From Chlamydiota bacterium (GTDB lineage: Bacteria; Chlamydiota; Chlamydiia; Chlamydiales; SM23-39), in assembly GCA_031423235.1 (NCBI GenBank), contig JANPFC010000055.1:1-61584 (forward strand): a DNA stretch of 61,584 bases, read 5' to 3'. Of the stretch, positions 21,172-40,574 are shown one piece after another; positions within the stretch are counted from its first letter, which is position 1; every line of letters starts with the position of its first letter. The position numbers and the translations under genes are program-made. The notes beneath the pieces were generated by a model that ran no database searches, was not told where the DNA came from, and saw only the letters and a list, made by a program, of their open reading frames with translations.

Positions 21172-21932
21172 CGAGTAGCAATAAATGTGAATTCGGGATC
21201 ATTCGGAGAGGCCGGTTCATTCGTATACTCCCGCACGCAGCTTATCTCTTTGAATCCTGCTTGAACCAATAGAGCGGTTAATTGCTCTTGCGTGTGCCAA
21301 CGCATCAAAAGATCTTCCTCTTCCGTGGCAATTACCTTCCCCTCTTTTGTAACAGTATAGAGATAGGCTGCATTTTCAATTTGGTTCGCTGTATCGAAAT
21401 GGGCTTTTTCATAGCAGCAAATGGTTGATCCGTCTGAGCGCGTCCCTTGGCGTCTAAGGCGCCATTCATCATGAGTCGGGGCCTTTTGATGAATATCAGA
21501 TTCAGTTGGAATCAGCGAGGGGATGATCAGTCTTCCCCCAGGCGTTAGGTGGTTCCAAAAGCGGGTTAGCGCTTGCCGCACATCGTCCATCGAGCTAATC
21601 AGCATGAAGGTCCCGTAGGGGATATAAAGTGTCGCGTAGCGGCCGGGAAGATCGAGATTCTGCATAGCCTGTGCATAGAGATTTACAGACAGCTGTTTTT
21701 TTGCAGCATTTTTGCGGCATTGGTCAAGCATATAGGGAGATAGATCGACCCCATCGACCCGGAGCCCTTTTTCAACAAACGGAATGAGAAGCCTTCCATC
21801 GCCGCACCCAAGCTCTAGGGCAGGTCCGTTCCCTTTTCGAATCCAAGACTCAAAAAAATCGGTATCTTCGTATTTTTGTTCAGGGAACCATATTCCATAA
21901 GCTTCTGAGCTAAGCGGTCCATAACTGGGCAT
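21168..21932 (-). CDS. Class I SAM-dependent methyltransferase
   Basis: Motif I ALELGCGDGRLL and motif post-I VDGVDLS. Translationally coupled on both sides (23-nt and 4-nt overlaps). Confidence 0.8.
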   Translation of the reverse strand: MPSYGPLSSEAYGIWFPEQKYEDTDFFESWIRKGNGPALELGCGDGRLLIPFVEKGLRVDGVDLSPYMLDQCRKNAAKKQLSVNLYAQAMQNLDLPGRYATLYIPYGTFMLISSMDDVRQALTRFWNHLTPGGRLIIPSLIPTESDIHQKAPTHDEWRLRRQGTRSDGSTICCYEKAHFDTANQIENAAYLYTVTKEGKVIATEEEDLLMRWHTQEQLTALLVQAGFKEISCVREYTNEPASPNDPEFTFIATR

Positions 21933-24900: not shown

Positions 24901-27900
24901 ATCGGGGAAGCAGTGGATGACGCTATTCATGATGACGAGATCAAAACCGCCTGTTTCGAGGGAGTCGATTTGATCTGCTTGGCAGCAGGCAAATTTGAGG
25001 TTGTCAAGGTTTTCCCGTTTGGCCCTTTCCTGGTTTTTTTGGATGATTGTAGAAGAGAGATCGACTCCGAAATACTCTTTCACATGCGGGGCGAGAGAAA
25101 AGGCGGTGAGTCCCGATCCGCACCCGATCTCTAAAACCTTAAATGAAGGGGTAAGATGGATTTTTAGTTTTTGGAGGATGTTTTCTGAGTACTCTCCCAT
25201 CTCTATTGGCGAGAAGGGGAGCCCTGTATAACTGGAAACCCACCCGCTTGAGGAGATCTCATCGCTTGATTCGAGCGCTACCTGATTCCAAAGTTCGGCG
25301 CTCATTAGATCGGAATAGGAGGCTGCTCGCTCTTCAGCATCTAGGCAAATATAGGATTGAAGGGAAGTTCCCCATTGGAGGTCGCCGAGCGTTTTAATGT
25401 ACCTTTTCTTTGAAAGGATGTGTTCGATCTTTCCTTGTTCGATCATTGAGGAGATTCTCTTCATAGGGGCTTTGATGTCGAGAGGGACGAAAGCTCCTCC
25501 GGCTTTGAGAACGGCAAGAATTGCCACAATCGATTCTTCGCTATTTTCTAGATAGATTCCGACAAGGGCTTCGCTTTTTAAGTTCTTCTGAAATTTCAGA
25601 TAGCGGGCGAGTTGATTGGCCTTGTTGTTCAACGCTTCATAGGTCACCACCCGATTGTCCGCCTTTACCACTGGGAGGAGAGGGGTGAGTTCGGCTTGCC
25701 TTTCAAAGAGCCGATGGAGCGGGATCTCTTCAAGAGGAGAACGGGGCCCAGTAATCGCATAGCTGAGCGGCGCGAGTTTTAGTTTGCGGAGGGGGGGGTC
25801 GATTTCTTCACTAATGGCTGAAAGGAGAGATCGATAGGTTGCGATGAGGAGATCGATCATCGGATCGGAATAGATGCCGACATAGTATTCGATGAAGCAC
25901 TCGATAGTTCCGCCCGCCTCTTTGACGAATTCAAACTCAAGATCCCACTTACAGCTTTGGTGCGGCAGTTCGACCCGCTCAGCTTTCATATTCTTAAGCG
26001 CCTCTTCCGCTTTAGAATCGAGTTCGAAATTTTGAAAGGCGACATTGATATTAAAGAGGGGGGAGCGGCTTGTATCCCGCTCGAGCTTAAGTTGGTCGAT
26101 CAGATGGTCAAATGGGTAGTCTTGATTCTCCATAGCTTCAAGCACCCGTTCTTTGACCCGATGGAGAAGGTGTTTGAAATTCTCTTCTGGAACAAGCGAG
26201 CACCGGATCGCTAAGGTGTTTACAAAAAATCCGACGAGCGGCTTGAGATCGGCATGGGACCTGCCAGAAACGGGAGTTCCTACAATGAGGTCAGTTTGCC
26301 CTGTGTATCGGTAAATTAGGGCGTAAACCGAGGAAAGGAGAACCATGAAGAGGGTTCCATTTGCGCCGTTTCCTATGCGCGTTAGAGCGGCCTGCTCTTT
26401 TTGCGAAAGGCGAAACGTTTTTCGCGACCCTTGGAAATGGAATACAGCTGGACGGATTTTGTCGCCGGGGATTTCACAAACAGGGAGGGGAGCTGTGAAC
26501 TGTTTTAGCCAGTAGCTTTCCATCGTTTTAAACCGTTCGCTCGAGAAGAGTTCCCTCTGCCAGTGGCAATAATCGATTGGATCTATTGTGAGCGGGGCCA
26601 GGTTGGCTTTACTGTATAGTTTGATGAGCTCTTCTACAATGATCCGAATCGACCAGCCGTCGGAGGCGATGTGGTGGATCATGAAAAAGAAAAGAGAAGA
26701 GGTCGGAGAGAGACGAAGAAGGAGCGCTTTTGCTAAGGGACCGTTCTCAAGGTCGAAGGGTTGATTGCGGAGCCGTCCGATCTCTTCTTTGGCAGCCTCT
26801 AGAGAAGGGACGTCTAGGACTGTTAAATCGAACGGTTTCGGTTCGAGTAGTTTCTGGTGCGGTTCTCCCTCTTTTTGGATAAAAACGGTGTGCAATCCTG
26901 CGTGGCGCTTAACGAGGAGATTTAGAGCATTCGTAAAGGCGTCGATGTCGATGGGAGTGTCGAAACGGTAGGTGTCGTAGATGTTATAGGCTACTGGGTG
27001 ATCCTGCATCTGATGGAGAATCCAGAGCCGTCTTTGGCCGAAGGAAAGGGGGTGGAGTTCTTGCTCTGCAATATGGGGGATAGGTTGAAACGAGCTTTCC
27101 ATTTTCTCCCCTAAAAATAGTGTGAGATCGGAAATCCTAGGGTTGCGGAATAGGTCTTGGTAGGAGATCTTTTTGTTGAGCCTCTTATGGATCGAATTGA
27201 TGATTTCCATGCCAGCTAGAGAATCTCCTCCCAAATCGAAGAAGTTCTCGCTGGGATCAATTTGATCCAGCCCCAATACCTCTCTATAAAGGGAGAGAAG
27301 CTGTTCTTGGACCGAGAGTTCCCTTTTTTCAGGGGGCGCGATGCAGGAGCGCCTGTCTTCATCATTCCATATTTTTGTCTCCAGCCAAAACCGTTTTTGC
27401 TCAAAGACATATGTGGGGAGAGAAACAAGATGGGGAGAGAACCCTTTGAATATTTCTTCAAAATTCAATTTTGGAATAGGTGCTAATTTAAGCTCATTTT
27501 GTTCCATTTGCTCTACGAGTTCACTGATCGAGGAGGCCATGAAGAGGATTTGCACAGGGTAATGGTTTTTCCCCTTAGCTAACGTGTAGCTTATATCAAC
27601 AGGGTGGAGTGAAGAAGGGGCGCTCCGGAAAAATGAGGTGTAGGCCCTCAATTGCTTTTGGAGGCCTGAGAGGGTTCGGTGCGAAAAGAGAAAGGGGAGT
27701 TTCGAGGCTATTGCCGCCGTTTGGCGCGCGGGGACCGGCGCCTCTTCGATAACGACATGGCAATTAGATCCGTTGAATCCGAAGGCGCTTACTCCTGCTA
27801 GACGTGGATGCTGTTTGGAAGGCCACGGGAGAGCTCGATTGGCGATAAATACGGGTGTATTTGGGAAATCGATAAATGAATTGGGCTCTTTAAAGTGGAG

Positions 27901-29130
27901 CGATGGGGGGATTTGGTTGTTTTTGAGAGCCAGAACTGTTTTTAAGAGGCTTGCCAATCCGGAAGCACCTCCAGTAAGGTGGCCAATATTGGTTTTTACC
28001 GAACCCACTGCGCAAAATTGCTTATCTTCTGTGTACTCGGAAAAGGCTTTGGAAATCCCCTGGATTTCGATCGGATCTCCGATGCGGGTCCCCGTTCCGT
28101 GGGCCTCTATATAGTCTATTTGGCGGGGATCGATCTTCCCTTTTTCCCAGGCCGCTTTGAGCAGGGCTGCTTGGGCCAGCGGATTAGGGGCTCCAACGCT
28201 TGAGGATTTGCCATCATTGTTAGTGGCGCTGCCCCGAATTAGAGCATAAATCGGATTTCGGTCGCGGATCGCATCGCTCAGCCTTTTGAGAATGAGTGCG
28301 CCGGCTCCTTCTCCTCTCACAATCCCGGAGGCCTTATCGTCAAAAGCGAGGCAGGCTCCTTGATCTGTCGTGATTCCGAGCGCATCGACAGGATCGTCTT
28401 TTACGGCAAAAGGGAAAAGGCGCAAATTGACAGCGCCTGTAATCGCCAAATCGCATTCGCGGGCAAGGAGCGATTGGCAGGCAAGATGGACAGCCACAAG
28501 AGATGTGGAGCAGGTGGTGCTCACATTGATGGCAGGGCCATGGAGATCGTAAAAGTGGGAAACGCGGGAGGCGATAAAGGGGGATATATTTCCGATTACT
28601 GCCAAAGGAGAGGCCTCTGAAATCAGTTTCCGATATTCGTTGACTACATCGCCAATAAAAACAGCTGTATTGGATCCCCGAAGCTGGGCTGATGTATAGC
28701 CCGCATCTTCAAGAGCTGTATGGACAAGTTCAAGAAAGATCCGCTGCTGCGGATCCATGATTTTCGCCTCAGATGGGACAATGTGGAAAAATTCGTTGTC
28801 AAACAGGTCCACATCGGTCAGGAATCCCCCTTTCCAATAAGGTTCATCTATCGAACGAAGCTGATCTCCTAAAGTCGGTATCAAACAGTCTGTATCTTTC
28901 CTACGCTCATCGGGAAACTCTGTCACGCAATCGGTTCCTTCAATCAACCGTTCCCAAAAGGACTCTTTCGTTGGAGCCAAAGGCATCCTGCATGAAAGAC
29001 CGATGATTGCGATCGGGTCGGACCCCTTTTCATTGAGCGCTTTGTATTTTTCTAATAGAGAAAGGGCCGATTCGTGCGAAATCCGCTTATCTTTATAGAG
29101 TTGGAGAAGATGTTCAATATACTCGTTCAT
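21910..29130 (-). CDS. Hybrid PKS-NRPS: KS-ACP-C-A(with embedded methyltransferase)-PCP-C(terminal)
   Basis: KS: STTCSTS, EAHGTGT, NIGHL. ACP: FFDLGGDSLAG. C: HHIASDGWS. A: LKAGGAFVPLD ... [VLEIGCGSGLTAF MT insert] ... FTSGSTGQPKGV, NEYGPTE, YRTGD, GRKDRQVKIKGYRIE, GNGKVD. PCP: FFDLGGDSIMA. Terminal C: HHLIIDGVS. Confidence 0.95.
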   Translation of the reverse strand: MNEYIEHLLQLYKDKRISHESALSLLEKYKALNEKGSDPIAIIGLSCRMPLAPTKESFWERLIEGTDCVTEFPDERRKDTDCLIPTLGDQLRSIDEPYWKGGFLTDVDLFDNEFFHIVPSEAKIMDPQQRIFLELVHTALEDAGYTSAQLRGSNTAVFIGDVVNEYRKLISEASPLAVIGNISPFIASRVSHFYDLHGPAINVSTTCSTSLVAVHLACQSLLARECDLAITGAVNLRLFPFAVKDDPVDALGITTDQGACLAFDDKASGIVRGEGAGALILKRLSDAIRDRNPIYALIRGSATNNDGKSSSVGAPNPLAQAALLKAAWEKGKIDPRQIDYIEAHGTGTRIGDPIEIQGISKAFSEYTEDKQFCAVGSVKTNIGHLTGGASGLASLLKTVLALKNNQIPPSLHFKEPNSFIDFPNTPVFIANRALPWPSKQHPRLAGVSAFGFNGSNCHVVIEEAPVPARQTAAIASKLPFLFSHRTLSGLQKQLRAYTSFFRSAPSSLHPVDISYTLAKGKNHYPVQILFMASSISELVEQMEQNELKLAPIPKLNFEEIFKGFSPHLVSLPTYVFEQKRFWLETKIWNDEDRRSCIAPPEKRELSVQEQLLSLYREVLGLDQIDPSENFFDLGGDSLAGMEIINSIHKRLNKKISYQDLFRNPRISDLTLFLGEKMESSFQPIPHIAEQELHPLSFGQRRLWILHQMQDHPVAYNIYDTYRFDTPIDIDAFTNALNLLVKRHAGLHTVFIQKEGEPHQKLLEPKPFDLTVLDVPSLEAAKEEIGRLRNQPFDLENGPLAKALLLRLSPTSSLFFFMIHHIASDGWSIRIIVEELIKLYSKANLAPLTIDPIDYCHWQRELFSSERFKTMESYWLKQFTAPLPVCEIPGDKIRPAVFHFQGSRKTFRLSQKEQAALTRIGNGANGTLFMVLLSSVYALIYRYTGQTDLIVGTPVSGRSHADLKPLVGFFVNTLAIRCSLVPEENFKHLLHRVKERVLEAMENQDYPFDHLIDQLKLERDTSRSPLFNINVAFQNFELDSKAEEALKNMKAERVELPHQSCKWDLEFEFVKEAGGTIECFIEYYVGIYSDPMIDLLIATYRSLLSAISEEIDPPLRKLKLAPLSYAITGPRSPLEEIPLHRLFERQAELTPLLPVVKADNRVVTYEALNNKANQLARYLKFQKNLKSEALVGIYLENSEESIVAILAVLKAGGAFVPLDIKAPMKRISSMIEQGKIEHILSKKRYIKTLGDLQWGTSLQSYICLDAEERAASYSDLMSAELWNQVALESSDEISSSGWVSSYTGLPFSPIEMGEYSENILQKLKIHLTPSFKVLEIGCGSGLTAFSLAPHVKEYFGVDLSSTIIQKNQERAKRENLDNLKFACCQADQIDSLETGGFDLVIMNSVIHCFPDLPYLRSVLQKAMNLCNGKALIFLGDLMDLQLKGELEDSLRAFKESHRDSSFRTKIDWSQELFISREFLSDLRGDIPGITHLEFSGKMGTVENELTRFRFDTLIHVDQERKLAISKQREQHSWISVEKEAESNLDLPISDRSLAYVLFTSGSTGQPKGVMVEHRSVHNYIAWAMHEYGKNQFPFYSPLHFDLTMTSLFTPLLYGGFLRIFQGEFDEVLETLSQTDDCNILKLTPAHLTMILDRGEPISSIRQFIVGGESLYAPQVAALSKLYGQSIRVDNEYGPTEATVGCITHTWNEAEKEGALLIGRPIANSTIHIVDDTLHPVPIGGIGEIVISGMGLARGYLNNLDLTQQKFLSDPKSGERMYRTGDLGRLLPNGKIAYLGRKDRQVKIKGYRIELDEIEAQILKHPSVLNCAVIAKNDPQRGPLLCGYYTTRAPLESDELAQFLGKFIPPYMIPPHLVLLSAMPTTGNGKVDTARLPEFQMVKSKKRVPPKNEIEQVLGSIWSRVLGIPEMELSTEDDFFDLGGDSIMAMRILPQVKAAGLNLSIKEIFQHRTISALCQKMVPHPECLIDQKAVEGSLPRTPIQHWFFEQEMLKPSYFNMAYLFQVPTELDLEQLQKAFWKCFEHHDALRMSFIEGDQTIEPLDKMVFHIDEFGLGDLSEDEQKEEILALTTQLQANFDLAKPPLLKAALFDLGCRGKRLFLAIHHLIIDGVSWRYLVEDLAALYHCKLLPLKTHSYKDWSLYLSSLASSEIEPWLEMDPAQFPRLSKDPFPLHGETVEEYVRFTEEETAELLAASGQANINEILLAALSESLFDHFGIEKCLIDHEGHGRNGNLDVSRTIGWFTTIYPICLKRKGTPLETLLNIKESIRRFSSSDLFYGIGRYLQKHPRLAEFKPEILLNYFGRVDDDLATQGNQKFLSNCQEEIGRSIHPANRMAHLIEMNAIIMDNCLRIAILYNPTSLINADLWIAAFRGYISKMPKRLKKDAQLWTA

Positions 29131-32100
29131 AGGTTCTTTGCTGTTTCGTAGAGATTGATTTTACCTGATTGAAAGTCTTCGAGAAGTTGGCTGAGCGACT
29201 TTTTGTCCTCTTTTTTCTTTTGACGCTCTTCAATCGAGCGGCAAAGATCTTCTAAGATCGGGTAGGAATAGAGATCGGAAATCTCTAAAGCTACTTGAAG
29301 CTGTACTTTTGATAGATGGAGCAGTTTGACCGCGGAGATCGACTCTCCTCCGATTTCAAAGAAATTCGCTTTTCGATCGATTTCTTCGAAGCCGAGAACA
29401 TCTTTCCAGATCTTTTGCATGATGACGATCATTTCTTCAAAGGTGAAGTCGTTCCGAACCTCTTTTTGATCTGCTGGAATTTCTAATTTGGCTTTCTCAA
29501 ATTCGCGGATCAAAGAGGGGGCGAAGCGGATTTTCATGAAGGGGAGAACGAGATTCATCACCTGGGCATTGAAGTCGGCGATGAGCGCAAATCCCATCTT
29601 CTTTGTGATGCACAAATCGAGAGTTTGTAAAAACTCCTCTTTTGTGAGGGGAGGAATCATGCTCATCCTGTCCGATAATAGGCTGCCATCATCCGCTTCG
29701 ATGAGGGTATAATTCATCGTTACAGTTGTGAGTCCCTGATCCATTCTCCAATCGCCAAAACTATCGAGGAACAAGTTCGAGGCGCAGCAATCGGCTCCAG
29801 TCGGCCCTCCTGTTAAAGACGAAATCGATGAGAAGGTAGCCATGAAATCAAGGGGCCATTTTCTTGTCAGTGTATCGAGGAGCCAGGTCCCTTTTACCTT
29901 CGCCAGAATATTTGAGCTGAGCCTCTCAAAGGCAACTGTATCCAACCGCTCATGGCTGATGTTTTTCATAGCGATAAACAGGCCGTGGATTGCGCCCCAT
30001 TTTTTCTCAACCGCTTCAATTAGCAACTGGCACGACTCAAGGCTTGTTACATCTCCTGAAAGATAGAGAACTTCAGAGCCGAGTTTTTCGATCTCCTCGA
30101 TTTGATTTTTTTGCTTTAGGGAGAGCGATTTTAGGTCTTTACGGCCGAAAAGTGCGATTTTGACCTTTTTTTTCTCCGCCAAGAGACGGGCTGTAGAAAG
30201 ACCGAGGTAGCCGCCGCCGCCCGCGATCACGTAAACGCCCTGATCGCGCACGACCATTTCTCGATTGGGCAATGAGAGGACCTCTTTCCTTTCTAAGACC
30301 TGAACGTACCGTTTTCCTTGGCGATAGCCGATGACCGCATCTTTGAACTCTTCCACTTTGAAGATTTCTGTAAAAATCGACGAGAAGATTTCCGGTTTTA
30401 ATTCGATATCGAGCGCAAGGCTTTGTACAAGGGGCATCTCTTGAGACGCCACCTTGTTGATCCCGAGCGACGGCATGCGGGTCGGGTCGATGGCCGCTTT
30501 TTCAGGCCCAATTTTATGGGCATATGTCGTACCGGTTACAAGTTTCCATTTCGCGTGAGGAACGCCCCTTTTGAGAGCGTTGATTAAATGGAAGAGGCTG
30601 AACGCGCCATGAACTTGAGACTTTTTGACCTCTTCCCAACTCATCGGCTTTCCAGAAGGGAGGGTGCAATCCCAAAGGTGGACGACTCCGCCAAATGAGC
30701 CAGATCTGTTTTCCATTGCCCATGCGGCTAGCCGATTATAATCTTCAGCTGAATCGGCGGCGATTATGCATTTATTCCCATCCAAAGGTTGGAAATCGAC
30801 TCCAGGATAGACCCGCAATACAGAAACCCCTTGCGATTCGGCAAAATCGGCAAAGGCTGTATGGGCATCATCTTGGCGAAGGAAGAAAATAAAGAACTGA
30901 TTGTCTATTCCACGGGTGGTTGGAAGGAGAGCCTCCTCTTCCCATTTTACCTCATAAAAGAAGGAACGGAGCCGTTCGTCTGTCGATTCCCGCTTTTCAA
31001 CCTCCAGTTTGGGCCAATGTCTTTTTCGGAGGAATGGATAGGTAGAAAGGGGGACTTTTCTTCCTGAGCCTTTAGGAAAATAGGTATTCCAGTTGATCTG
31101 CCTGTTTTGAAGATAGAGCTGAATCAGTTCTGGGGCCTCTCTTAGAGAGGTATTTTTTGTATAGATTCCGGGAACTTCTTTACCCTCGATGTGGGAGGTG
31201 ATTTTATTGGATAATTCGGAGATTGAATCGGCAGAAATGGCTATCCTAGTTTCATAGTGATTCCGCCCCTTGGCAAGAGTAAATGAGAGGTCGCTTGCTG
31301 TAAGATTTGGGTGGGTCTTTATCCAATCGAGATGCTTGGTTAGGTGGGGGATCATCGATTCGGGCTGTTTAACTGAAAAAAGGAACACCTTAACTGGGAC
31401 TGAGGGGGATGGGTTTTGAGGATAGTTTTCCACAACAAGATGGCAGTTAGTTCCGCTGATGCCAAAAGAGCTGATCCCCGCAGTCAATTTTCCCCCTTTC
31501 AACTCGTGAAGTTGAGCATTTGGGTAAACCGCTGAATTCTTAAAATCGATAAACGGATTGGGCTTATGGTAATGGATGTTGGGAGGAAGGGTCCGATGTT
31601 CCAAGGCCAAGATCGCCTTGATGAGTCCCGCTAAACCGGAGGTGGCTTCCAAGTGGCCAATATTTGTTTTAACAGCGCCAAGAGGGCAAATCTGCTTTTT
31701 CTCAGTCGATTCGTTAAAGGCTTGGGTAAGTCCTAAGATTTCAATTGGATCTCCCAACTTTGTCCCAGTCCCGTGCGTTTCGATAAAGGAGAGATTTTCA
31801 GGCTCGATCTTAGCCTGTTTCCAAGCGGCTAAAAGTACATCTCTTTGCGCTTCTGGGTTTGGCGAAGTGAGGCCGTTTGAACTTCCGTCGCTATTGACCG
31901 CGCTCCCTTTGATGAGGGCGTGGATATAGTCGCCATCCCGCTCTGCCAAGTCTCTTCTTTTGATGATGATCGCGGCAACCCCGTCTCCAATATTGGTTCC
32001 GCTGGCCTTTTCATCGAAGGATTTGCATCGTCCATCGTAGGCTTCAATCCCCAAGTTGCTGATCTCCCGAATCGCGGGGAATATCCGCACATTTACCCCG

Positions 32101-32801
32101 CCGACAATCGCTTGGTCGCAATCGCCCTGAGCGATCGACTGGCATGCCTGATGGACTGCAACGAGTGAAGAAGAACAAGCTGTATCGATAATCATGGTCG
32201 GCCCTCTCATGTCATAGAGGAACGAGAGGCGGTAGGCGAGGAGAGAAGGTTGATTTCCTAAAGCGATATTCGGGTCGTTTTTTGAAAGAATATCGATGTA
32301 GTTGTCATCGTTTACAGAATATCCGACAAACACTCCTGTATTCGTTCCCCGGAGATCGCTTTCTGTCAGCCCAGCATTTTCGAGCGCCTCAATAGCAGTT
32401 TCTAGGAAAATCCGTTGATTTGGATCCATGACCCTCGCTTCAGCTGGAGTTAACTTGAAAAAGGTATGGTCGAATAGATCGATTTGATCGAAATAGGTTC
32501 CAATGCGGCAATGGAGTCCATTGCAAAGTTCAAAGGTGCGCGCATTGGCATACTTTACATCATCCATCCGCTGCTTGGGGAAAGCTCCAACTGCATCCCG
32601 CCGATTGATCAGATTGTCCCAGTAGGCTTCAAGGGTGGGCGCTCCAGGCAAACGGCATGACATACCGATAACCGCATATTCGTGCGAGGATTTGGGGGCG
32701 GTATGCTCGAGCTCTTCCAAATAGCGGAGGGCCTCTTCGGCGGGTAGTTTTTTTGCGGCAATCTGTTGCAGGAGATAATTTTTCAGTTGTTCCATAGACA
32801 T
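29127..32801 (-). CDS. AT-less polyketide synthase module: KS-(linker/psiKR)-KR-like-ACP
   Basis: KS: DTACSSS, ETHGTGT, NIGHL. KR Rossmann motif VYVIAGGGGYLG. The KR active-site region SSISSLTGGPTGADCCASNLFLD has Cys where Tyr is expected. ACP: FFEIGGESISA. No GHSxG acyltransferase motif. Confidence 0.95.
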   Translation of the reverse strand: MSMEQLKNYLLQQIAAKKLPAEEALRYLEELEHTAPKSSHEYAVIGMSCRLPGAPTLEAYWDNLINRRDAVGAFPKQRMDDVKYANARTFELCNGLHCRIGTYFDQIDLFDHTFFKLTPAEARVMDPNQRIFLETAIEALENAGLTESDLRGTNTGVFVGYSVNDDNYIDILSKNDPNIALGNQPSLLAYRLSFLYDMRGPTMIIDTACSSSLVAVHQACQSIAQGDCDQAIVGGVNVRIFPAIREISNLGIEAYDGRCKSFDEKASGTNIGDGVAAIIIKRRDLAERDGDYIHALIKGSAVNSDGSSNGLTSPNPEAQRDVLLAAWKQAKIEPENLSFIETHGTGTKLGDPIEILGLTQAFNESTEKKQICPLGAVKTNIGHLEATSGLAGLIKAILALEHRTLPPNIHYHKPNPFIDFKNSAVYPNAQLHELKGGKLTAGISSFGISGTNCHLVVENYPQNPSPSVPVKVFLFSVKQPESMIPHLTKHLDWIKTHPNLTASDLSFTLAKGRNHYETRIAISADSISELSNKITSHIEGKEVPGIYTKNTSLREAPELIQLYLQNRQINWNTYFPKGSGRKVPLSTYPFLRKRHWPKLEVEKRESTDERLRSFFYEVKWEEEALLPTTRGIDNQFFIFFLRQDDAHTAFADFAESQGVSVLRVYPGVDFQPLDGNKCIIAADSAEDYNRLAAWAMENRSGSFGGVVHLWDCTLPSGKPMSWEEVKKSQVHGAFSLFHLINALKRGVPHAKWKLVTGTTYAHKIGPEKAAIDPTRMPSLGINKVASQEMPLVQSLALDIELKPEIFSSIFTEIFKVEEFKDAVIGYRQGKRYVQVLERKEVLSLPNREMVVRDQGVYVIAGGGGYLGLSTARLLAEKKKVKIALFGRKDLKSLSLKQKNQIEEIEKLGSEVLYLSGDVTSLESCQLLIEAVEKKWGAIHGLFIAMKNISHERLDTVAFERLSSNILAKVKGTWLLDTLTRKWPLDFMATFSSISSLTGGPTGADCCASNLFLDSFGDWRMDQGLTTVTMNYTLIEADDGSLLSDRMSMIPPLTKEEFLQTLDLCITKKMGFALIADFNAQVMNLVLPFMKIRFAPSLIREFEKAKLEIPADQKEVRNDFTFEEMIVIMQKIWKDVLGFEEIDRKANFFEIGGESISAVKLLHLSKVQLQVALEISDLYSYPILEDLCRSIEERQKKKEDKKSLSQLLEDFQSGKINLYETAKNL

Positions 32802-32804
32802 TCT

Positions 32805-35800
32805 TTAGTGATGATTTTTGAGTAGTTGATAGGCTTCGTCAGAATTGATCGATCCACTTTCGAGCATTTTCAATAGCTCAAGTTTCGATTTTTTCTTTGA
32901 GCCGGATGACTCTATTTTTTGCGCTTGGGAGGCGATTGTGTAATGGGCGAAAAGGGTGGAGATATCCTGCTTTATTGAAAAGGTCTCTTGGATCTTCTCA
33001 TGCAGCCGAATGATGAGGAGCGAATGGCCTCCCACATCGAAAAAGCTCTCTTCTTTTCCAATCGATTCAATTCCGAGCACCTCTTTCCAAATGGCCAATA
33101 GTTTTTTTTCGGTTTCGGTGAACTCCCCATCGCTGACCGCCTCTTCCGTCTGTATCCGGTGAGCGTCAAGGGAGAGCATGTCCACTTTTCCATTGTGGAG
33201 GCGGGGGATCTCTCTAAGGAAGCCGATTTGATCGGGAATCATGTAGTCGGGCAATTTCTTCTTTAGGAGGTCTTTGACGGCAGATGCGGAGGGGAGGGGG
33301 GCTTCCTTGGAAAAAACAACATAGGCAATGAGAGCCCCTTTTAAAACCACGAGAGCCGTTTCAACTCCTTTCAAACAGGACAAAGTTCTTTCAATCTCTT
33401 CGAGTTCAATCCGAAAGCCTCGGCGCTTCACTTGCCTGTCGCTTCTTCCTCGAAGGAGGACTTCGCCTGAGACGGTCCTCAAGGCTATATCGCCGGTTCG
33501 GTAGAGTCTCTCTTTTGTGGAAGGATGGTTGATAAATCGGTCATCCGTGAGCTCTTTGAGATTGAGATACCCCCTCGCCACGCCAACCCCGCCGATGTAG
33601 AGATCTCCAGGCATTCCGGGAGGAACCGGTTTTAGACAGGAATTTAAAATATGGAGCTCCACATTCGGGATGGCTCTCCCAATAGGAATATCTTCCCACT
33701 CGGCAGGCCATTTTGAGAGGTCGAAAACAGCTGAGATGGAGGTCGCTTCCGTTGCTCCATAAGTATTTAATAACTGGATCCCGGGAGCCACTTTTTCGCA
33801 CCAAGTAACGACCTTCGATCGATTCACCCGCTCTCCCCCCACAATCACCATCCGGAGCGAGGCCGGAACTGAAATATCCTTTCTTTCTAGCACATCGACG
33901 AGGTCATGCCAGTAGGAAGAGGGGAGATCCCAGAAGGATACCCGGTATTTTTCGGTCCTTTCCAACAGTGACTCGAACGACTCAACACGCCCCTCTCCTC
34001 TTAAAACAAGGCTAGCCCCGCAAAGGAGGGTTGGGTAAATCTCTTCAGACGAGGTGTCCCAGCAGATAGAGGAAAACTGGAGTGCTCTATCCTCTGGAGT
34101 CATTTCAAAGAAGTCGATGGCAGAGAGCGAGAAGTTCAAAAGGCTCCGATGTCCAACCATGACCCCCTTCGGATTTCCGGTGCTTCCAGAAGTGTAGAGA
34201 ATATAGGCCAGACCATCGGGAAAGCGGGGGAAAGTTGTGATGGAAATGGGCCGTTTTGATTCTACTGCTGGATTGAAAACGGTTCCAGTAAAACAAGAGA
34301 GAGATTCAGCCCCTTTTTCTGATGCGAGGATGAATCGGATGCCTGCATCTTTGATGATAGCTTGAACCCTCTGAGAAGGGTAAGTGGGATCGATGGGGAC
34401 ATAGGCTCCCCCTGCTTTTAAAATGGCTAAAAGGGAGGCGATTAAGAGAGGCTCGCGCTCCAAACAAAGTCCAATCGGCTCCGACGGCTTAATTCCCGCA
34501 TGAACCAATGAAGAGGCAATAGCGGAAACGGCTTGGTTTAATTCCCCGTAGCTGAGGTTCCCCCGGTCTGAAAAAATGGCCGTTTTATCTCGATTTGCCT
34601 CTGCTTGTTTTTCAAAGAGATCGATGAGAGAGTCCTCTTTCGAAAGAGAGTGGGACTCCAATGAAGCCGAGGGGGCAGCAATGGCCTGCTCGAGAAAGGA
34701 AAGGTAGGTTCGCCCGATTTCCTCAATGAAAAACCCGGGAATTTTCTCATTTTGATATTCAAAGACTAGTTCAAGCCCCTCTTCTCTTTGCTGCACTTCA
34801 AGCACAAGATCGTAAAGGGGGGCAGAACTTTTAATAGGCAAATTTTCAATCTTTAAATCGGCGAACTGCGTGCGGTTCGTCGGAGCATTTTGCATGACAA
34901 ACATCGCTTGAAAGAGAGGGGAGGCATTCATGAACCGAGGCGGGTGAAGGCGCTGCAGCAGATGTTGAAATGGGTATGCAGTCTCTTTTTCATCTGTCCA
35001 AACACAATCTTTAACCTGCGCTAAAAGATCCAAAAACGTCCCGTTTTGTTTCGATTCTGTTTTGCAAACGAGCGTATTCACAAAAAAGCCGATTATTTTT
35101 TGAAAATTGGCGCGGGGGCGATTAGCTGTTGGAAATCCAACATAGATTTGCTTTTCGCCAGAATAGAGGTGGAGAACTGCGTGAAATGCGGCCATCAAGA
35201 CAATTGACGGGGTAGCTTGGCAGCTTGCGGCGAATTCTTTCACCCTTCGAGCCAGATGACTATTCATCATCAGGGATTTAGAATAGGAATTTTCCTTAAG
35301 AGGATCTGGGCTGAAGGGGGAGATTTTCAAGATCGGATATTCTTCTGCCTTTAATCGCTTTTCCCAGTTCGTTTCGACGGTTTTGTATGCGGGGCTTTCG
35401 AATAGTTCTTGCTGCCATCTGACAAATGGATCGTATTGAGAGGGGAGGGGAATCCATGAGACTTTTGTCCCATTGACCCGGGCCTGGTACGCCTCTTCCA
35501 GTTCTTTGAATAAAATCTCTACTGACCAACCATCAAAAATGAGGTGGTGGAAATTAAACACAAGAATGGATTTCTCCTTAGCAAGTGTGATCTTAAAGAG
35601 CGGAGCAACAGATAGATCAAATAGTTGGCTGCAGATCTCATCAATACTCTCCTCGGATAGATCGAGCGGGATAGAAACTTGCTCAGAAACGATCTGGACA
35701 GTTCCGGAGGGACGAGATTCGAAGCGGGTGCGCAGGGGGGCGTGCCTTTCAATTAAATCACCGATCGCTTCCTTGAGCGCCGCTATATTCAAAGCCCCAT

Positions 35801-37772
35801 CAATACGAATTGCAAATGAGATGTTGTATGCAGGCGATGAGGGGTGAAGTTTGCAGGAGACCCAAACATTTTCCTGATTCGGCGAAAGGGGAAATTCAAG
35901 AGAGGCCGTCTCTTCTGGTTGCGGCGATAGGGGGATTTCATTCTGAATGAGCTTTTCAATCTCCCCGACGGTTGCCCCATTTAAAAGATAAGGTAAGTTG
36001 AGCTCTTTCCCATATTTTTCTTGAATCCAGCTTAAAAACTGAACGCCGGCGAGAGAGTCAATACCTAGTTTTATAATTGGATCATCGACTCCAATTTCAC
36101 TTGGATGAATGCCTAATAGCTGAGAGAGTTTTCGCTTGATACTCGGGTCCTCTTCCCCGTTGTCGATTTCCCCTTTTTGCCAGGAAAAAAGGGTCGATAA
36201 CGATTTTTCCAGAAATTGCTGGCGGACCGCAAAGTGTTGGATTTTCCCAGAGGTTGTCCGCGGAAGCGAGTTGGGGACAACAAAATGGAGCGCATAGGGG
36301 GCAATCTCAAATTCTTCAGCAAGAGCTCTTTTGATGTTCTTGAAGAGCTCTTGAATAACAACAGGGTCTTTTATATGCCTGTCGATCTCTTGAACTAGGA
36401 CAAGCTCTTCTCCCTCATTGGTATCTATCGAAAAAGCAGCGGCCGGCTGGGCATTGGCGGCGCAGGTTTCAAGATCGTGAGGGAAATAATTCTTTCCCCG
36501 CAGGATAACCATGTTTTTCACCCGCCCCAGTACAAACAACTCCCCATTTTTCAAGAAGCCAAGATCCCCAGTTCTTAAAAAGGGGCCTTTTCCATCAGAG
36601 GTAAAGGCATTAAAGGTCTTCTCCGTCTCCTCGGGTTGATTCCAATAGCCGGCAGCAACCGATTTTCCCGCGGCCCAAATTTCACCATATTGCAATTCTT
36701 GGCAAACTTGTTTGGTTTCAGGATCGGCAACGACTACGGTTTCACCAAGAGTCGGACTGCCGCAATTGACCACGTCGCTTAAAGACTGAGCGGATGTAGT
36801 GAAGAGCGTGGAGCTAGCCCCTTTGCGCCCTGTAATCAGAAGGGTGGTTTCAGCCATTCCATAGCAAGGGAAGAAAGCCTCTTCGCGAAAGCCAATGGGA
36901 GCGAATTTTCGGGCAAAAGCGCGCATTGTTTCTGTCTGCACTCTTTCCGCCCCATTGAAAGCGATAGTCCATGAGGAAAGATCTAGTTTTGAGAGCTCTT
37001 CATCTTTGATTTTAGAGGTGCACAATTGGTAGGCAAAATTCGGACCGCCGCTCGTGGTTCCTTTGTAGCGGGAAATCGCTTCCAGCCAGCGGATAGGGTT
37101 TTGCATGAAGGTTAAGGGGGCCATGAGCGTGCAGGAGACCCCTAAATAGAGAGGGTGGAGAATATTTCCAATCAGCCCCATATCGTGATAAAAGGGGAGC
37201 CAGCCTACGATTTTAGACTCTTCTGAATGTTGGAACGCCTGTTGCAAAACACTTTGATGATGGAGTAAGTGGGCGTGAGTTAAAATGACCCCTTTCGGAC
37301 GGGAAGTAGAGCCTGAAGTATATTGGAGAAATGCGATCTGATCTCCTTTTACAGGGGCCATAGAATGGACGGGCAAATTTAGAGCATCTTCTATATACAG
37401 TGTGGGAAGATCGAATCCATCTCCTATCCCTTTCATAGTTAAGATCAAAGTTGGATTCGCATTCTCCATAACTGGGGCTGTACGGGCGATCTGCCTTTTG
37501 CTTTGAGGAGGAGGAATAGGTATAGCGATAGCTCCCGCATAGAGACATCCGAGGAATGCAGTGATAAATTCAATCCCTGGCGGGAAGAAAAGAATAACCC
37601 TCTTTTCGCCTTTGGTTTGCTGTTGAATCATCCCTGCAATTTGGAGCGCCCTCTTTTGAAGGGTGGCAAAAGTGACTATTTCCTTCTCATTTCCCTCGTT
37701 ATTCAGGAAAATATAAGCTGGCGCGGAGCCTCGGGTATCAGACCAATGATCTAACCGGTTTAAGATGGACAT
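32805..37772 (-). CDS. Loading/first NRPS module: FAAL-ACP-C-A-PCP
   Basis: FAAL-type N-terminus (YTSGSTSRPKGV, GWLPFYHDMGL, YGMAETT, LRTGDLG). ACP: KLGIDSLAG. C: HHLIFDGWS. A: YTSGSTGNPKGV, NTYGATE, YRTGD, GRSDRQVKRRGFRIE, HNGKVD. PCP: FFDVGGHSLL. Confidence 0.95.
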   Translation of the reverse strand: MSILNRLDHWSDTRGSAPAYIFLNNEGNEKEIVTFATLQKRALQIAGMIQQQTKGEKRVILFFPPGIEFITAFLGCLYAGAIAIPIPPPQSKRQIARTAPVMENANPTLILTMKGIGDGFDLPTLYIEDALNLPVHSMAPVKGDQIAFLQYTSGSTSRPKGVILTHAHLLHHQSVLQQAFQHSEESKIVGWLPFYHDMGLIGNILHPLYLGVSCTLMAPLTFMQNPIRWLEAISRYKGTTSGGPNFAYQLCTSKIKDEELSKLDLSSWTIAFNGAERVQTETMRAFARKFAPIGFREEAFFPCYGMAETTLLITGRKGASSTLFTTSAQSLSDVVNCGSPTLGETVVVADPETKQVCQELQYGEIWAAGKSVAAGYWNQPEETEKTFNAFTSDGKGPFLRTGDLGFLKNGELFVLGRVKNMVILRGKNYFPHDLETCAANAQPAAAFSIDTNEGEELVLVQEIDRHIKDPVVIQELFKNIKRALAEEFEIAPYALHFVVPNSLPRTTSGKIQHFAVRQQFLEKSLSTLFSWQKGEIDNGEEDPSIKRKLSQLLGIHPSEIGVDDPIIKLGIDSLAGVQFLSWIQEKYGKELNLPYLLNGATVGEIEKLIQNEIPLSPQPEETASLEFPLSPNQENVWVSCKLHPSSPAYNISFAIRIDGALNIAALKEAIGDLIERHAPLRTRFESRPSGTVQIVSEQVSIPLDLSEESIDEICSQLFDLSVAPLFKITLAKEKSILVFNFHHLIFDGWSVEILFKELEEAYQARVNGTKVSWIPLPSQYDPFVRWQQELFESPAYKTVETNWEKRLKAEEYPILKISPFSPDPLKENSYSKSLMMNSHLARRVKEFAASCQATPSIVLMAAFHAVLHLYSGEKQIYVGFPTANRPRANFQKIIGFFVNTLVCKTESKQNGTFLDLLAQVKDCVWTDEKETAYPFQHLLQRLHPPRFMNASPLFQAMFVMQNAPTNRTQFADLKIENLPIKSSAPLYDLVLEVQQREEGLELVFEYQNEKIPGFFIEEIGRTYLSFLEQAIAAPSASLESHSLSKEDSLIDLFEKQAEANRDKTAIFSDRGNLSYGELNQAVSAIASSLVHAGIKPSEPIGLCLEREPLLIASLLAILKAGGAYVPIDPTYPSQRVQAIIKDAGIRFILASEKGAESLSCFTGTVFNPAVESKRPISITTFPRFPDGLAYILYTSGSTGNPKGVMVGHRSLLNFSLSAIDFFEMTPEDRALQFSSICWDTSSEEIYPTLLCGASLVLRGEGRVESFESLLERTEKYRVSFWDLPSSYWHDLVDVLERKDISVPASLRMVIVGGERVNRSKVVTWCEKVAPGIQLLNTYGATEATSISAVFDLSKWPAEWEDIPIGRAIPNVELHILNSCLKPVPPGMPGDLYIGGVGVARGYLNLKELTDDRFINHPSTKERLYRTGDIALRTVSGEVLLRGRSDRQVKRRGFRIELEEIERTLSCLKGVETALVVLKGALIAYVVFSKEAPLPSASAVKDLLKKKLPDYMIPDQIGFLREIPRLHNGKVDMLSLDAHRIQTEEAVSDGEFTETEKKLLAIWKEVLGIESIGKEESFFDVGGHSLLIIRLHEKIQETFSIKQDISTLFAHYTIASQAQKIESSGSKKKSKLELLKMLESGSINSDEAYQLLKNHH

Positions 37773-38641
37773 AGTTTTGCCGCAATATGCTGAAGGATTT
37801 TCTTCGGTTCGTGAACAAAAAAGTGGTCCCCTTCCATTTCATGAACTTCGATTTTTTGTTCCGACCAAAGGGCCCATTTTTGCATTTCAGGAAGCGAAAC
37901 GATTGGATCTCGATCGGCGCCAAATAAAATGATGGGAAAGGAGACCTTTGCCATTTTTCGTTCATACCCCTGCATTAGGGAAAAATCGTTCCTCAGAATA
38001 GGGAGGAAGAACTCTTTAAATTCATGAGACTCTAATAAAGTCGGAGGGATCCCGTTTAGTTTCTGAAGCGTCTCTATAAAATCGGAATCGGAGAGTTCAT
38101 TGATCGTTGATAACGCTGTGGCTGCATCAGGCGAAGGGGAACCGGAAAGGAAGAGGGCCTCTGGAGACATCCCATATATATCCTTTAAAATAAGTGCAAG
38201 CTCGAAGGCAATAATGGCCCCAAGACTATGGCCGAAAAAGGCAAATCGGCCTTTAGGAGCATTGAGAATTTCCTTTTCCAAATGAGCTAAAAGGAGCTCA
38301 AGAGTGGATGCTAGCTTCTCTTTTGCTTTCGATCCCCTTCCTGGGTATTCAATCGGATGAACCCGGATTTTCGAGGGGAGTGCTTTTTGCCAGTTTTCAT
38401 AAAGCCACTTATTTCCCCCTGCATAGGGAAAGCAAAAGAGATGTAAATCGGAGGCTATCAGCTCCTCTATCTCTCTCGTTGGAGTCTTTTTTAGCTTCAA
38501 TGCCTCCAAAACCAAACGGTCTGCCTCTTCAGGCGTAGGCTTTTCTTTTAGGCGCTGGTAGATTTCAGCGATCCGATTTGCTGCCTGAAGATCTCCCCGG
38601 TTGTAATTTTGGGTTGTGGCAAGAAGTGTTAATGGATTCAT
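37760..38641 (-). CDS. Type II thioesterase
   Basis: About 250-aa alpha/beta hydrolase core with FCFPYAGG, nucleophile elbow FFGHSLGA and C-terminal GDHFF. Overlaps the NRPS start by 13 nt. Confidence 0.85.
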   Translation of the reverse strand: MNPLTLLATTQNYNRGDLQAANRIAEIYQRLKEKPTPEEADRLVLEALKLKKTPTREIEELIASDLHLFCFPYAGGNKWLYENWQKALPSKIRVHPIEYPGRGSKAKEKLASTLELLLAHLEKEILNAPKGRFAFFGHSLGAIIAFELALILKDIYGMSPEALFLSGSPSPDAATALSTINELSDSDFIETLQKLNGIPPTLLESHEFKEFFLPILRNDFSLMQGYERKMAKVSFPIILFGADRDPIVSLPEMQKWALWSEQKIEVHEMEGDHFFVHEPKKILQHIAAKLCPS

Positions 38642-38647
38642 AAATGT

Positions 38648-39823
38648 TCAGCAAGATGATGATAAAACTAGGTTTTGAGATTGCCGTTTTGTCGGTGTGA
38701 TTGGATAGCGGTATTCTTTGCCCTGAAAGTTTTTTAGGACAATCTCTGTCTCTGTAATCTCTTTAATCGTGTCTGGATTTAGAGGGATTTTTCCTCCGCC
38801 TCCAGGACCGTCGATCACAAATTGGGGAACTCCGTAACCGGTCGTATGGCCCCTGAGCTGCTGAATCAGATCCAGCCCTTTTTGGACATCGGTTCTGAAA
38901 TGGGAACTCCCTGTAATCAAATCGCACTGATACAGGTAGTAAGGTCTCACACCCATTTGCAAAAGGCGATGGGAAAGAGATTTTAACGCATCGATATTAT
39001 CGTTGATCCCTTCCAGAAGAACAGATTGGTTTCCTAAAACAACGCGCGCCCTTGCGAGACTTTCGCATGCTTTCTTCAGTTCTAGAGTGCACTCTTTGGG
39101 ATGATTGACATGTATACTCATCCAAATCGGTCCATTTTGATCAAGAACTTGACACAATTCAGGAGTGATTCTTTGCGGCATGAAAACGGGGATTCTTGAT
39201 CCAATCCGGATGAACTCAATGTGGGGAATCGCCCGTAATCTTGCTAGCAGGACTCCGAGTTTCCTATCAGGTAGAAGGAGTGGATCTCCACCGCTGATCA
39301 GGACATCCCGGATCGTTGGGTGGTTCTCAATGTATTGGATCGCCTCTTCAAAGGCTGGGTGAAAGTCATAGTTTTGCGCATTTGAAACAAGCCGGCTTCG
39401 CGTGCAGTATCGGCAGTAAGCTGCGCAGGCGCTTGTGACAAGAAACAACACCCGGTCAGGATACCGATGAACAAGTCCTCTTACTGGCATATGGGATTCT
39501 TCGCCAACGGGATCCAGTCTTTCCTCAGGCGCTGTGAACATTTCTCCGCTTCTTGGGATGACTTGTTTGCGGATAGGGCAATCGGGATCGTTCCGGTCGA
39601 TTAAGTTAAAGTAGTGCGGTGTGACTGCGAAAAGGAGTTTTTGGTTTGCGAATTGACAGCCCTCTTCCTCATCGGGACTTAATTCCATTAAGCTTTTCAG
39701 TTGGTCGATTTTTTGGATTCGTGATTTGAGTTGCCATGCCCAGCTATTCCACTCTTCTTTTGGAGTATCGCTCCATAATCCCTGTCCAGAAATCCAGTTG
39801 CTAAGATGATCGTTTGGGTACAT
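38648..39823 (-). CDS. kamA: KamA-family radical SAM amino acid 2,3-aminomutase (lysine 2,3-aminomutase-like)
   Basis: Radical-SAM cluster motif CAAYCRYCTRS, ISGGDPL, and the length and overall pattern of KamA-family enzymes. First gene of the assembly-line operon. Confidence 0.75.
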   Translation of the reverse strand: MYPNDHLSNWISGQGLWSDTPKEEWNSWAWQLKSRIQKIDQLKSLMELSPDEEEGCQFANQKLLFAVTPHYFNLIDRNDPDCPIRKQVIPRSGEMFTAPEERLDPVGEESHMPVRGLVHRYPDRVLFLVTSACAAYCRYCTRSRLVSNAQNYDFHPAFEEAIQYIENHPTIRDVLISGGDPLLLPDRKLGVLLARLRAIPHIEFIRIGSRIPVFMPQRITPELCQVLDQNGPIWMSIHVNHPKECTLELKKACESLARARVVLGNQSVLLEGINDNIDALKSLSHRLLQMGVRPYYLYQCDLITGSSHFRTDVQKGLDLIQQLRGHTTGYGVPQFVIDGPGGGGKIPLNPDTIKEITETEIVLKNFQGKEYRYPITPTKRQSQNLVLSSSC

Positions 39824-39905
39824 TTTTTTATCCTCGAAGTGGGAGAGCTGAGTATGTTATCTTAAGTATTTGATTTATTGAAAGTAGTGCGAATTTCTTT
39901 AGTCT

Positions 39906-40574
39906 TTGCAGGCGAGTATGTGCATACAAATCAGATCTGTAGATCTTCGGACATATCATGAAAATGAAGAGACATTTTTCTCCGTTCTCGATATTCATGA
40001 AAAAAGAAGAGCGGATAGCTTTAAGTTTCCTTATTTGCGCCGGAATTACATTCTCTCTCACGGAATTTTGCGCTATGAACTCGCCGAGTATCTCAATGTG
40101 GATCCATCTGAAATAGCATATCGCTACGGGCCGTTTGGCAAACCGTACTTAACAACGGGTGAAATGTATTTCAATATGTCCCATTCGATGGATATGGCGT
40201 TGTATGGATTTTCATTTCAGGCAGATATCGGCGTAGACATCGAATACATTAAGCCCTTAATTGGCATCGAAGATCTGCCCCTTTCTGCCCTTACAATTCA
40301 AGAACGGAATGAGATCTTGGATTTACCCATCTGCAAACAGAAAGAGGCGTTTTATAAACTGTGGACTCGACGAGAGGCCTATTACAAGGCGATTGGAAGC
40401 GGATTGCAATCAGAAACTGTTGAGATTCCACCTGAGTGCCGTTTTTTAGAACCCTTTTCTTCGTGTCAGTATATCTCAACAGTTGCTTACTTGGACCTGT
40501 TTGGGAAAATCACTTTAGTACAGCCGAGCGCTAAAATAAGGGCTGCAGCTAGCATCGCAATACCTCCGACATAG
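39906..40574 (+). CDS. Sfp-type 4'-phosphopantetheinyl transferase
   Basis: GKPYL, FNMSHS, GVDIEY and WTRREAYYKAIG motifs. Start is the TTG at 39906 or the ATG at 39918. Divergent from the NRPS operon. Confidence 0.8.
   Translation: MQASMCIQIRSVDLRTYHENEETFFSVLDIHEKRRADSFKFPYLRRNYILSHGILRYELAEYLNVDPSEIAYRYGPFGKPYLTTGEMYFNMSHSMDMALYGFSFQADIGVDIEYIKPLIGIEDLPLSALTIQERNEILDLPICKQKEAFYKLWTRREAYYKAIGSGLQSETVEIPPECRFLEPFSSCQYISTVAYLDLFGKITLVQPSAKIRAAASIAIPPT

Follow-up and report, generated by a model that had tools for sequence, protein, structure and literature searches.

Does the aminomutase gene at the head of a chlamydial nonribosomal peptide synthetase/polyketide synthase (NRPS/PKS) operon supply that assembly line with a beta-amino acid? 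The question is raised by a 61,584-nt stretch of contig JANPFC010000055.1 (GCA_031423235.1) from a Chlamydiota bacterium of lineage SM23-39 (the whole stretch is called the window below), in which a KamA-family gene (product P0001) directly precedes a thioesterase (TE) gene and several NRPS and PKS genes. Comparisons of protein sequences, a predicted structure and genomic contexts suggest that P0001 is a dedicated lysine 2,3-aminomutase (LAM) that makes beta-lysine for the adjacent operon, most likely via the adenylation (A) domain of the first synthetase (NRPS1), and we assign this reading a probability of about 0.6.

Family, fold and substrate-binding residues of P0001

The gene and the codons of its diagnostic motifs lie at the following positions of the window:

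38648..39823, minus strand: kamA-like gene (P0001, 391 aa), LAM-type radical S-adenosylmethionine (SAM)/pyridoxal phosphate (PLP) 2,3-aminomutase (Pfam, NCBIfam, alignment to PDB 2A5H, structure model)
39395..39427, minus strand: codons of CAAYCRYCTRS (aa 133-143) (alignment to 2A5H)
38789..38923, minus strand: codons for Asp301, Asp338 and Lys345 in the motifs YQCDL and DGPGGGGK (alignment to 2A5H)

P0001 is read from the minus strand (the plus-strand frame of 38648-39823 is riddled with stops), contains the Pfam domains Radical_SAM and LAM_C, and scores 354.7 bits against the KamA subfamily model TIGR00238 (cut-off 199.2), a result that was confirmed on the genome. It is 48% identical to the LAM of Clostridium subterminale (PDB 2A5H), with a phmmer E-value of 1.9e-121 (far beyond chance) over residues 16-375, and also 48% identical to Bacillus AblA (named by PGAP annotation, with ablB adjacent). 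The closest database matches (P0002-P0023) share 71-96% identity with it. An AlphaFold model based on 28 homologues (mean predicted local distance difference test score 81.8, predicted template modelling score 0.84) has 2A5H as its top PDB match (template modelling score 0.80, E 7e-39), and the next fold follows at E 7e-6.

Alignment to 2A5H places the [4Fe-4S]/SAM ligands at Cys133, Cys137 and Cys140 (Cys125, Cys129 and Cys132 in 2A5H) and the PLP lysine at Lys345 within GGGGK (Lys337), all of which are invariant in alignment A1, as is Arg142. Arg142 and Ser177 (Arg134 and Ser169 in 2A5H) are conserved, as are Asp301 and Asp338 (Asp293 and Asp330). In 2A5H, Arg134 and Ser169 bind the carboxylate, Asp293 and Asp330 hold the epsilon-ammonium group of lysine, and Lys337 is the PLP lysine. 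Reference members of the family were drawn from a plasmid collection and comprised Bacillus velezensis AblA (next to ablB), Klebsiella EpmB (next to efp), Kitasatospora BlsG (between blsE/blsF and other blasticidin-type genes) and a BlsG-type gene of Xenorhabdus. Around the two Asp positions, the following motifs were observed:

LAM/AblA and P0001: YQCDL around Asp293; D(A/G)PGGGGK around Asp330/Lys337
BlsG type: YHCDN around Asp293; TTK--GK around Asp330/Lys337 (two-residue deletion)
EpmB: LD(R/P)VQG around Asp293; RE..G.PSK around Asp330/Lys337

Since both the signature motifs and the residues are of the LAM kind, P0001 can be assigned to the LAM type, and its active site points to lysine as the very probable substrate. 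P0001 is not of the BlsG (arginine aminomutase) type, as the motifs differ at both sites, the BlsG type falls into a separate clade, and the score against the arginine/BlsG model TIGR04468 (409.3 bits) is under the cut-off of 600. Nor is it of the glutamate 2,3-aminomutase type: such enzymes reportedly have Lys/Asn in place of Asp293/Asp330, both positions are Asp in P0001, and the score against TIGR04368 is 399.8 bits for a cut-off of 650, so that the distinction draws on the profile score and on published residue differences. In a quick maximum-likelihood tree, whose deep order is unsure owing to long branches, P0001 falls into a chlamydial clade (99% support) nested in a clade (97%) otherwise made up of Opitutales/Verrucomicrobia proteins. 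The BlsG type forms its own clade (SH-like approximate likelihood ratio test support 99), and EpmB stands far from P0001, grouped with the second KamA paralogue of the same genome.

This second paralogue bears on whether P0001 could serve in the modification of elongation factor P (EF-P). The genome (2.56 Mb in 148 contigs, 96.9% complete) encodes an EpmB-like KamA-family protein on contig C72, which scores 363.4 bits against the EpmB model TIGR03821 (just under the cut-off of 369.3) and groups with Klebsiella EpmB, and an EpmA on contig C13, which exceeds its cut-off (307.2 versus 286.9). An EpmB-type gene is present in 37 of the 40 relatives searched at genus, family and order level. No orthologue of P0001 was found in any of these 40 genomes, the best matches being EpmB-type proteins of 31-39% identity and one partial fragment of 41%. 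P0001 scores 275.4 bits against TIGR03821 and lacks the EpmB signature residues, and we rejected EpmB as its identity on these grounds together with the separate EpmB-like gene and EpmA. The initial annotation of this locus had called the gene a KamA-family aminomutase and left room for it being the only EpmB of the genome. Profile models, alignment and tree bear out the family and narrow it to an enzyme with LAM-type substrate residues, not of the EpmB, BlsG or glutamate type. The side-chain-binding residues to which it had drawn attention include both epsilon-ammonium Asp residues (Asp301 and Asp338), and the tree, the gene on C72 and EpmA on C13 assign the EF-P role elsewhere.

Operon layout and its recurrence in other Chlamydiota

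The kamA gene opens a run of seven minus-strand genes (39823 to 18874) that are either spaced by no more than 6 nt or overlap by 4-23 nt. The remaining features of this locus are as follows:

39906..40574, plus strand: Sfp/HetI-type 4'-phosphopantetheinyl transferase (PPTase), divergent from kamA (profile match)
39824..39905, no strand: 82-nt spacer separating the divergent kamA and PPTase genes, where promoters are presumed
37760..38641, minus strand: stand-alone TE, 293 aa (PF00975, E 5e-43)
32805..37772, minus strand: NRPS1, 1655 aa, with fatty acyl-AMP ligase (FAAL), acyl carrier protein (ACP), condensation (C), A and peptidyl carrier protein (PCP) domains in the order FAAL-ACP-C-A-PCP (Pfam; FAAL from PDB matches)
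33186..34616, minus strand: A domain of NRPS1 (aa 1053-1529), code DTEDIGTSIK, proposed beta-lysine acceptor (core motifs)
29127..32801, minus strand: PKS module without acyltransferase (AT), ketosynthase (KS)-ketoreductase (KR)-ACP, 1224 aa (Pfam)
21910..29130, minus strand: KS-ACP-C-A(MT)-PCP-C protein (MT, methyltransferase), 2406 aa, A-domain code DLTKIGEVGK (Pfam, core motifs)
21168..21932, minus strand: class I SAM methyltransferase (Pfam)
18874..21171, minus strand: penicillin-amidase/PvdQ-type N-terminal nucleophile (Ntn) acylase, last gene of the run (Pfam, NCBIfam)

The TGA stop codon of kamA (38648-38650) is followed by 6 nt (acattt) and then by the ATG of the TE gene at 38641, and a scan found no terminator-like site at this junction. 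The five genes downstream of TE start after 3-nt gaps or with 4-23-nt overlaps, and a GAGGA ribosome-binding site lies 8 nt upstream of the kamA ATG. Because the upstream neighbor, the PPTase gene, is divergent on the plus strand, the co-directional run starts with kamA. The sequence agrees with the initial annotation as to an open reading frame (ORF) of 391 aa with CAAYCRYCTRS that ends 6 nt before the TE gene. Its placement of this ORF at the start of the assembly-line operon is supported by the divergent PPTase gene upstream and the tight spacing, and the strand, which it had not stated, is minus.

As for the synthetases, the best PDB matches of the N-terminal adenylating domain of NRPS1 are FAAL structures (7R7G, 3KXW and FadD23/32). 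In the second A domain, whose code DLTKIGEVGK is Asn-like, MT is inserted between core motifs A2 and A3 rather than A8 and A9, and the protein that contains it (21910-29130) ends in a C domain without a cis-TE. Both KS modules are AT-less, and neither among the operon proteins nor among the neighboring ORFs scanned was an AT domain detected. The gene for an AT acting in trans (perhaps FabD) must therefore lie elsewhere.

The distribution of the gene was surveyed in a 400-genome sample of the phylum Chlamydiota, and as related genomes are not independent, all counts are descriptive only. KamA orthologues (67-73% identity) were detected in 6 of the 400 genomes, which belong to four families. In three of them (G377, locus L023; G217, loci L024 and L054-055; G292, loci L036 and L053), KamA is directly followed by TE, NRPS1 and PKS. 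The TE orthologues at this position in L023, L024 and L036 are 41-48% identical to that of the window, and the divergent position of the PPTase gene is kept in L023 and L024. The full set, comprising orf503, PPTase, KamA, TE, NRPS1, PKS, NRPS3, methyltransferase and acylase, is held by G217, where the cluster ends with the acylase orthologue (51% identical). In a fourth genome (G254), KamA is cut by the contig end and an NRPS1 orthologue lies on another short contig. These four genomes, all of which have KamA (4/4), are also the only ones of the sample with a full-length NRPS1 orthologue (42-52% identity), and KamA immediately precedes TE-NRPS1 in every genome whose contigs permit a check (the genome under study, G217, G292 and G377). 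The linkage to NRPS/PKS genes proposed in the initial annotation from the 6-nt gap is reinforced by this gene order, which recurs in three chlamydial genomes of other families, and KamA shows the conserved linkage to and co-occurrence with a synthetase that a beta-amino-acid supplier dedicated to a biosynthetic gene cluster (BGC) would show.

The other chlamydial orthologues have different surroundings. In G293 (locus L051, contig C375), a KamA that is 68% identical follows a fused double ABC exporter gene and is divergent from an NRPS gene starting with a C domain, and in G330 the orthologue stands alone. Elsewhere in G293 (L091), an A domain has the code DPENVGVIIK, an acidic pocket that may take a basic amino acid. 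Members of the Opitutales/Verrucomicrobia clade (L025-L035, L037, L038 and L060-L077; 58-73% identical) are stand-alone genes with variable neighbors. No conserved partner was common to the neighbors of the Opitutales homologues, among which ablB, epmA and fermentation partners were not found, and a scan of Joint Genome Institute metagenomes returned 18 loci, all stand-alone and mostly high-GC, none of which had TE or NRPS genes.

Several other genes were observed in the course of these comparisons. Within the window, the PPTase ORF (39906-40574, plus strand) converges with an ORF for a major facilitator superfamily (MFS) transporter (40487-41668, minus strand), and their 3' ends overlap by 88 nt (40487-40574), so that one of the called ends may be too long. 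The flanks of the cluster (44641-46176 and 14412-15644) encode a nucleoside tri-/diphosphate (NTP/NDP) exchange transporter (TIGR00769, 555.9 bits) and a second, TLC/MFS-like transporter; NTP/NDP and TLC-like transporters typify an energy-parasitic life inside host cells, which is in keeping with the Chlamydiota. In G380 (contig C7; L049:9794-13068), a KamA homologue (54% identical) carries an ATP-grasp domain of the D-Ala-D-Ala-ligase type as a C-terminal fusion (763 aa in total), and a second ATP-grasp gene follows immediately. A KamA-family gene of G222 (L050:9905-11122) has the BlsG signature (YHNDN, TTK--LGK), clusters with the Xenorhabdus and Kitasatospora BlsG-type genes and has no NRPS gene nearby. 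On the megaplasmid of Xenorhabdus bovienii CS03 (L058:7971-16466), a BlsG-type aminomutase gene is followed by genes for an aminotransferase, a TauD-type dioxygenase and a type I PKS, and this is probably another KamA-family enzyme feeding an assembly line, with a beta-arginine-derived unit.

Lysine-type pocket of NRPS1 and the proposed pathway

The ten specificity positions of the A domains were taken from the core motifs and verified by alignment. NRPS1 has the code DTEDIGTSIK, and DTE(D/N)IGTSIK is found in the orthologues of the other four clusters (5/5 clusters). Homologues with the same FAAL-ACP-C-A-PCP architecture in the KamA-less genomes G276 and G240 have unrelated codes. The pocket with its acidic Glu239 and Asp/Asn278 is of the Lys type, which indicates that the A domain of NRPS1 would take lysine or beta-lysine, and the suggestion in the initial annotation that one of the two A domains receives a beta-amino acid is in keeping with this code.

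Similar pockets were found in a plasmid cluster of Streptomyces sp. 2P-4, which encodes a LAM, VioC/VioD-like enzymes, a carbamoyltransferase, a PCP-C protein and two stand-alone A domains and is judged from this gene content to be of the streptothricin type. Its two A domains have the codes DTENVGTLVK and DTEVVGTLVK, and they resemble the chlamydial domain in having a ..LP..YWH segment and in lacking two residues after G(A/S)TE. A beta-Lys code that we presume to be that of VioO (DTEDVGTMVK) could not be confirmed and was not used as evidence. By gene content, the two Streptomyces domains would correspond to ORF5 and ORF19, which adenylate beta-lysine according to the account of Maruyama et al. 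2012 given in PMC10522769. Among the Streptomyces plasmid loci annotated as 'lysine 2,3-aminomutase', a usable beta-Lys A domain is present in H29 and absent from H27 and H36. ScoA, with the code DTEDVGTVVK, prefers L-lysine in ATP-PPi exchange (bioRxiv 10.1101/121228). Since DTE(D/N)IGTSIK matches both ScoA and the streptothricin-type domains, alpha- and beta-lysine are not separable by the code, but the LAM gene comes first in every cluster copy, which makes beta-lysine the more economical reading for the A domain of NRPS1.

On this reading, P0001 would convert free L-lysine into beta-lysine (3,6-diaminohexanoate) by the canonical LAM mechanism, in which a 5'-deoxyadenosyl radical derived from [4Fe-4S]-bound SAM, a substrate-PLP aldimine and a 1,2-amino shift would be the successive elements. 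Beta-lysine would then be adenylated by the Lys-type A domain of NRPS1, loaded onto the PCP of the same protein, and N-acylated by the starter C domain with a fatty acid delivered by FAAL-ACP. The chain would be extended by the two AT-less KS modules, receive its last residue from the Asn-type module with the inserted MT, and be set free by either the discrete TE or the C domain at the end of the line. It is possible that the PvdQ-like acylase afterwards removes the lipid, as in pyoverdine maturation.

Weighing of alternatives, significance and comparison with known systems

Several observations weigh against the assignment of P0001 as a beta-lysine supplier to NRPS1. The inter-subunit zinc site of 2A5H is not kept, as Cys268 is replaced by Asn276 and P0001 ends before the C-terminal ligand region (Cys375, Cys377 and Cys380 in 2A5H); not every LAM has this site, given that position 268 of Bacillus AblA is Ser. 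Although the lysine model TIGR03820 gives the best of the equivalog scores (436.5 bits), it too stays under its cut-off (525.4), and because no NCBIfam equivalog cut-off is reached, P0001 belongs to a distinct, uncharacterised KamA subclade. Stand-alone genes of about 70% identity are common in Opitutales/Verrucomicrobia and present in one chlamydial genome, which argues that this enzyme type is not intrinsically tied to BGCs, and a promoter scan detected no sigma-70 consensus, and no promoter, in the 82-nt spacer between kamA and the PPTase gene. On the side of the synthetase, the code of NRPS1 is equally close (7/10) to that of ScoA, an activator of L-lysine and not of beta-lysine, and its A domain shares 30-31% whole-domain identity with the streptothricin-type A domains, which confines their resemblance to the pocket; its best plasmid matches are cyanobacterial NRPSs (~40% identity).

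Apart from this weighing, one or two cysteines were observed at the C-terminus (38648-38700 in the window) of all six members of the chlamydial clade that were compared (P0001, L023, L024, L036, L047 and L051), whose ends read SSSC, SQCC, EPTC, ITQC, LSCC or SGPC. They may constitute a replacement metal or redox site.

It is conceivable, if rather unlikely, that KamA makes beta-lysine while NRPS1 loads L-lysine, and that beta-lysine enters elsewhere, for example as the chain-releasing amine at the terminal C domain. The closest biochemically tested code is that of the L-lysine activator ScoA, and the assembly line terminates in a C domain without a cis-TE, as do other systems in which the chain is passed to a free amine on release. 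However, the streptothricin-type beta-Lys codes are just as close and have extra pocket features in common with NRPS1, one lysine-derived unit is more economical than two, and the sequence holds no mark of an amine-accepting terminal C domain. Somewhat less probable still is a 2,3-aminomutase that supplies the pathway with the beta form of another basic amino acid, for instance ornithine, arginine or a modified lysine. P0001 stays below every equivalog cut-off with three similar scores, its clade is uncharacterised, and selectivity for side-chain length is not readable from two Asp residues, but both Asp residues and the surrounding motifs are LAM-type where BlsG-type enzymes differ at both sites, the identity to the C. 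subterminale LAM and Bacillus AblA is 48%, and the code of the partner A domain is Lys-type.

A general cellular role, such as making beta-lysine as an osmolyte or in lysine catabolism, with a merely fortuitous position next to NRPS/PKS genes, appears improbable. The abundance of ~70% identical stand-alone genes in Verrucomicrobia and the lone gene of chlamydial G330 would fit it, but the gene is patchily distributed, with no orthologue in the 40 close relatives, it co-occurs with NRPS1 in 4/4 genomes, lies directly upstream of TE-NRPS1 where checkable and 6 nt from its neighbor, and has no ablB, kamDE, kdd or kce partner nearby. The specific AblA/AblB osmolyte reading was rejected, as an acetyltransferase is absent among the operon genes and the neighboring ORFs scanned. 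That P0001 is the EF-P beta-lysylation enzyme EpmB can hardly be entertained: it shares the family and matches TIGR03821 at 275 bits, but this score (275.4) is under 369.3, the signature is absent, EpmA lies on C13, and the separate EpmB-like gene has orthologues in nearly all relatives. We therefore retain a dedicated LAM for the NRPS1 pathway as the preferred reading.

To our knowledge, no NRPS/PKS product has been characterised, and no building block assigned, from Chlamydiota. What is on record for secondary metabolism in this phylum goes no further than antiSMASH counts (Dharamshi et al. 2022, PMC9666466), and the same paper mentions NRPS genes of Chlamydiae bacterium S4.2_7 in passing, without an analysis of KamA; our locus L024 comes from this metagenome-assembled genome (MAG 'Chlamydiae bacterium O_S4.2_7'). 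We tentatively propose that the chlamydial and Opitutales proteins form a zinc-site-less, C-terminally short LAM subfamily, which might have been recruited in a few environmental chlamydiae to head a conserved, FAAL-primed and AT-less assembly line with PvdQ-type acylase processing, for making a beta-lysine lipopeptide-polyketide. If true, no earlier natural product containing a beta-amino acid would be known from obligate intracellular bacteria, and few defined NRPS/PKS products would have preceded it; such a compound could act on hosts or competing symbionts. The LAM and the Lys-type A domain together predict an N-acyl-(beta-)lysine start unit, which offers a mass-spectrometric handle for the compound, and the rule by which a neighboring LAM gene signals a beta-lysine-containing product would be extended from actinomycetes to the PVC superphylum. 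As the enzyme chemistry is already well known, the finding is a useful annotation rather than a surprise: it is known biosynthetic logic in a new host group, and what sets it apart is the LAM subclade, the in-line FAAL-primed hybrid partner and the phylum.

Compared with the characterised enzymes, P0001 shares with C. subterminale SB4 KamA (2A5H) and Bacillus KamA/AblA the cluster, PLP and carboxylate residues, both Asp residues and the YQCDL and DxPGGGGK motifs, but it is shorter (391 aa versus 416 and 473 aa, respectively) and lies in an NRPS/PKS operon, whereas those enzymes are encoded with lysine-fermentation genes or ablB. EpmB (YjeK) is of the same family with the same cluster and PLP residues, but is ~35% identical to P0001, has a Glu at the Asp330 position and a shorter chain, and forms a separate clade. 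BlsG of blasticidin S biosynthesis is also KamA-family, cluster-encoded and 41-45% identical, but has YHCDN/TTK--GK instead of YQCDL/DGPGGGGK and belongs to a separate clade. With regard to the whole operon rather than KamA, there is a resemblance to the pyoverdine system (PvdL/PvdQ; fatty-acyl priming followed by deacylation), since an acyl-adenylating domain begins chain assembly and the last gene encodes an Ntn acylase of the PvdQ family; the chromophore genes are absent here, and deacylation would be assumed by analogy.

For tuberactinomycins and streptothricins, LAMs encoded within the cluster are known to provide NRPS-type enzymes with beta-lysine, and VioP of viomycin is a KamA-family gene inside a peptide antibiotic cluster. 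The LAMs of streptothricin-type and epsilon-poly-beta-lysine clusters are likewise encoded together with a dedicated A domain (DTE..GT..K or D.E-type pocket), and it was through a LAM gene next to an NRPS-like synthetase that epsilon-poly-beta-lysine was discovered (PMC10522769). In our comparison, the LAMs of peptide antibiotics are actinobacterial, 22-28% identical to P0001, and feed stand-alone A domains or polymer synthetases. Unlike these actinobacterial LAMs, P0001 of Chlamydiota is partnered with an in-line module that belongs to a FAAL-primed NRPS/PKS hybrid.

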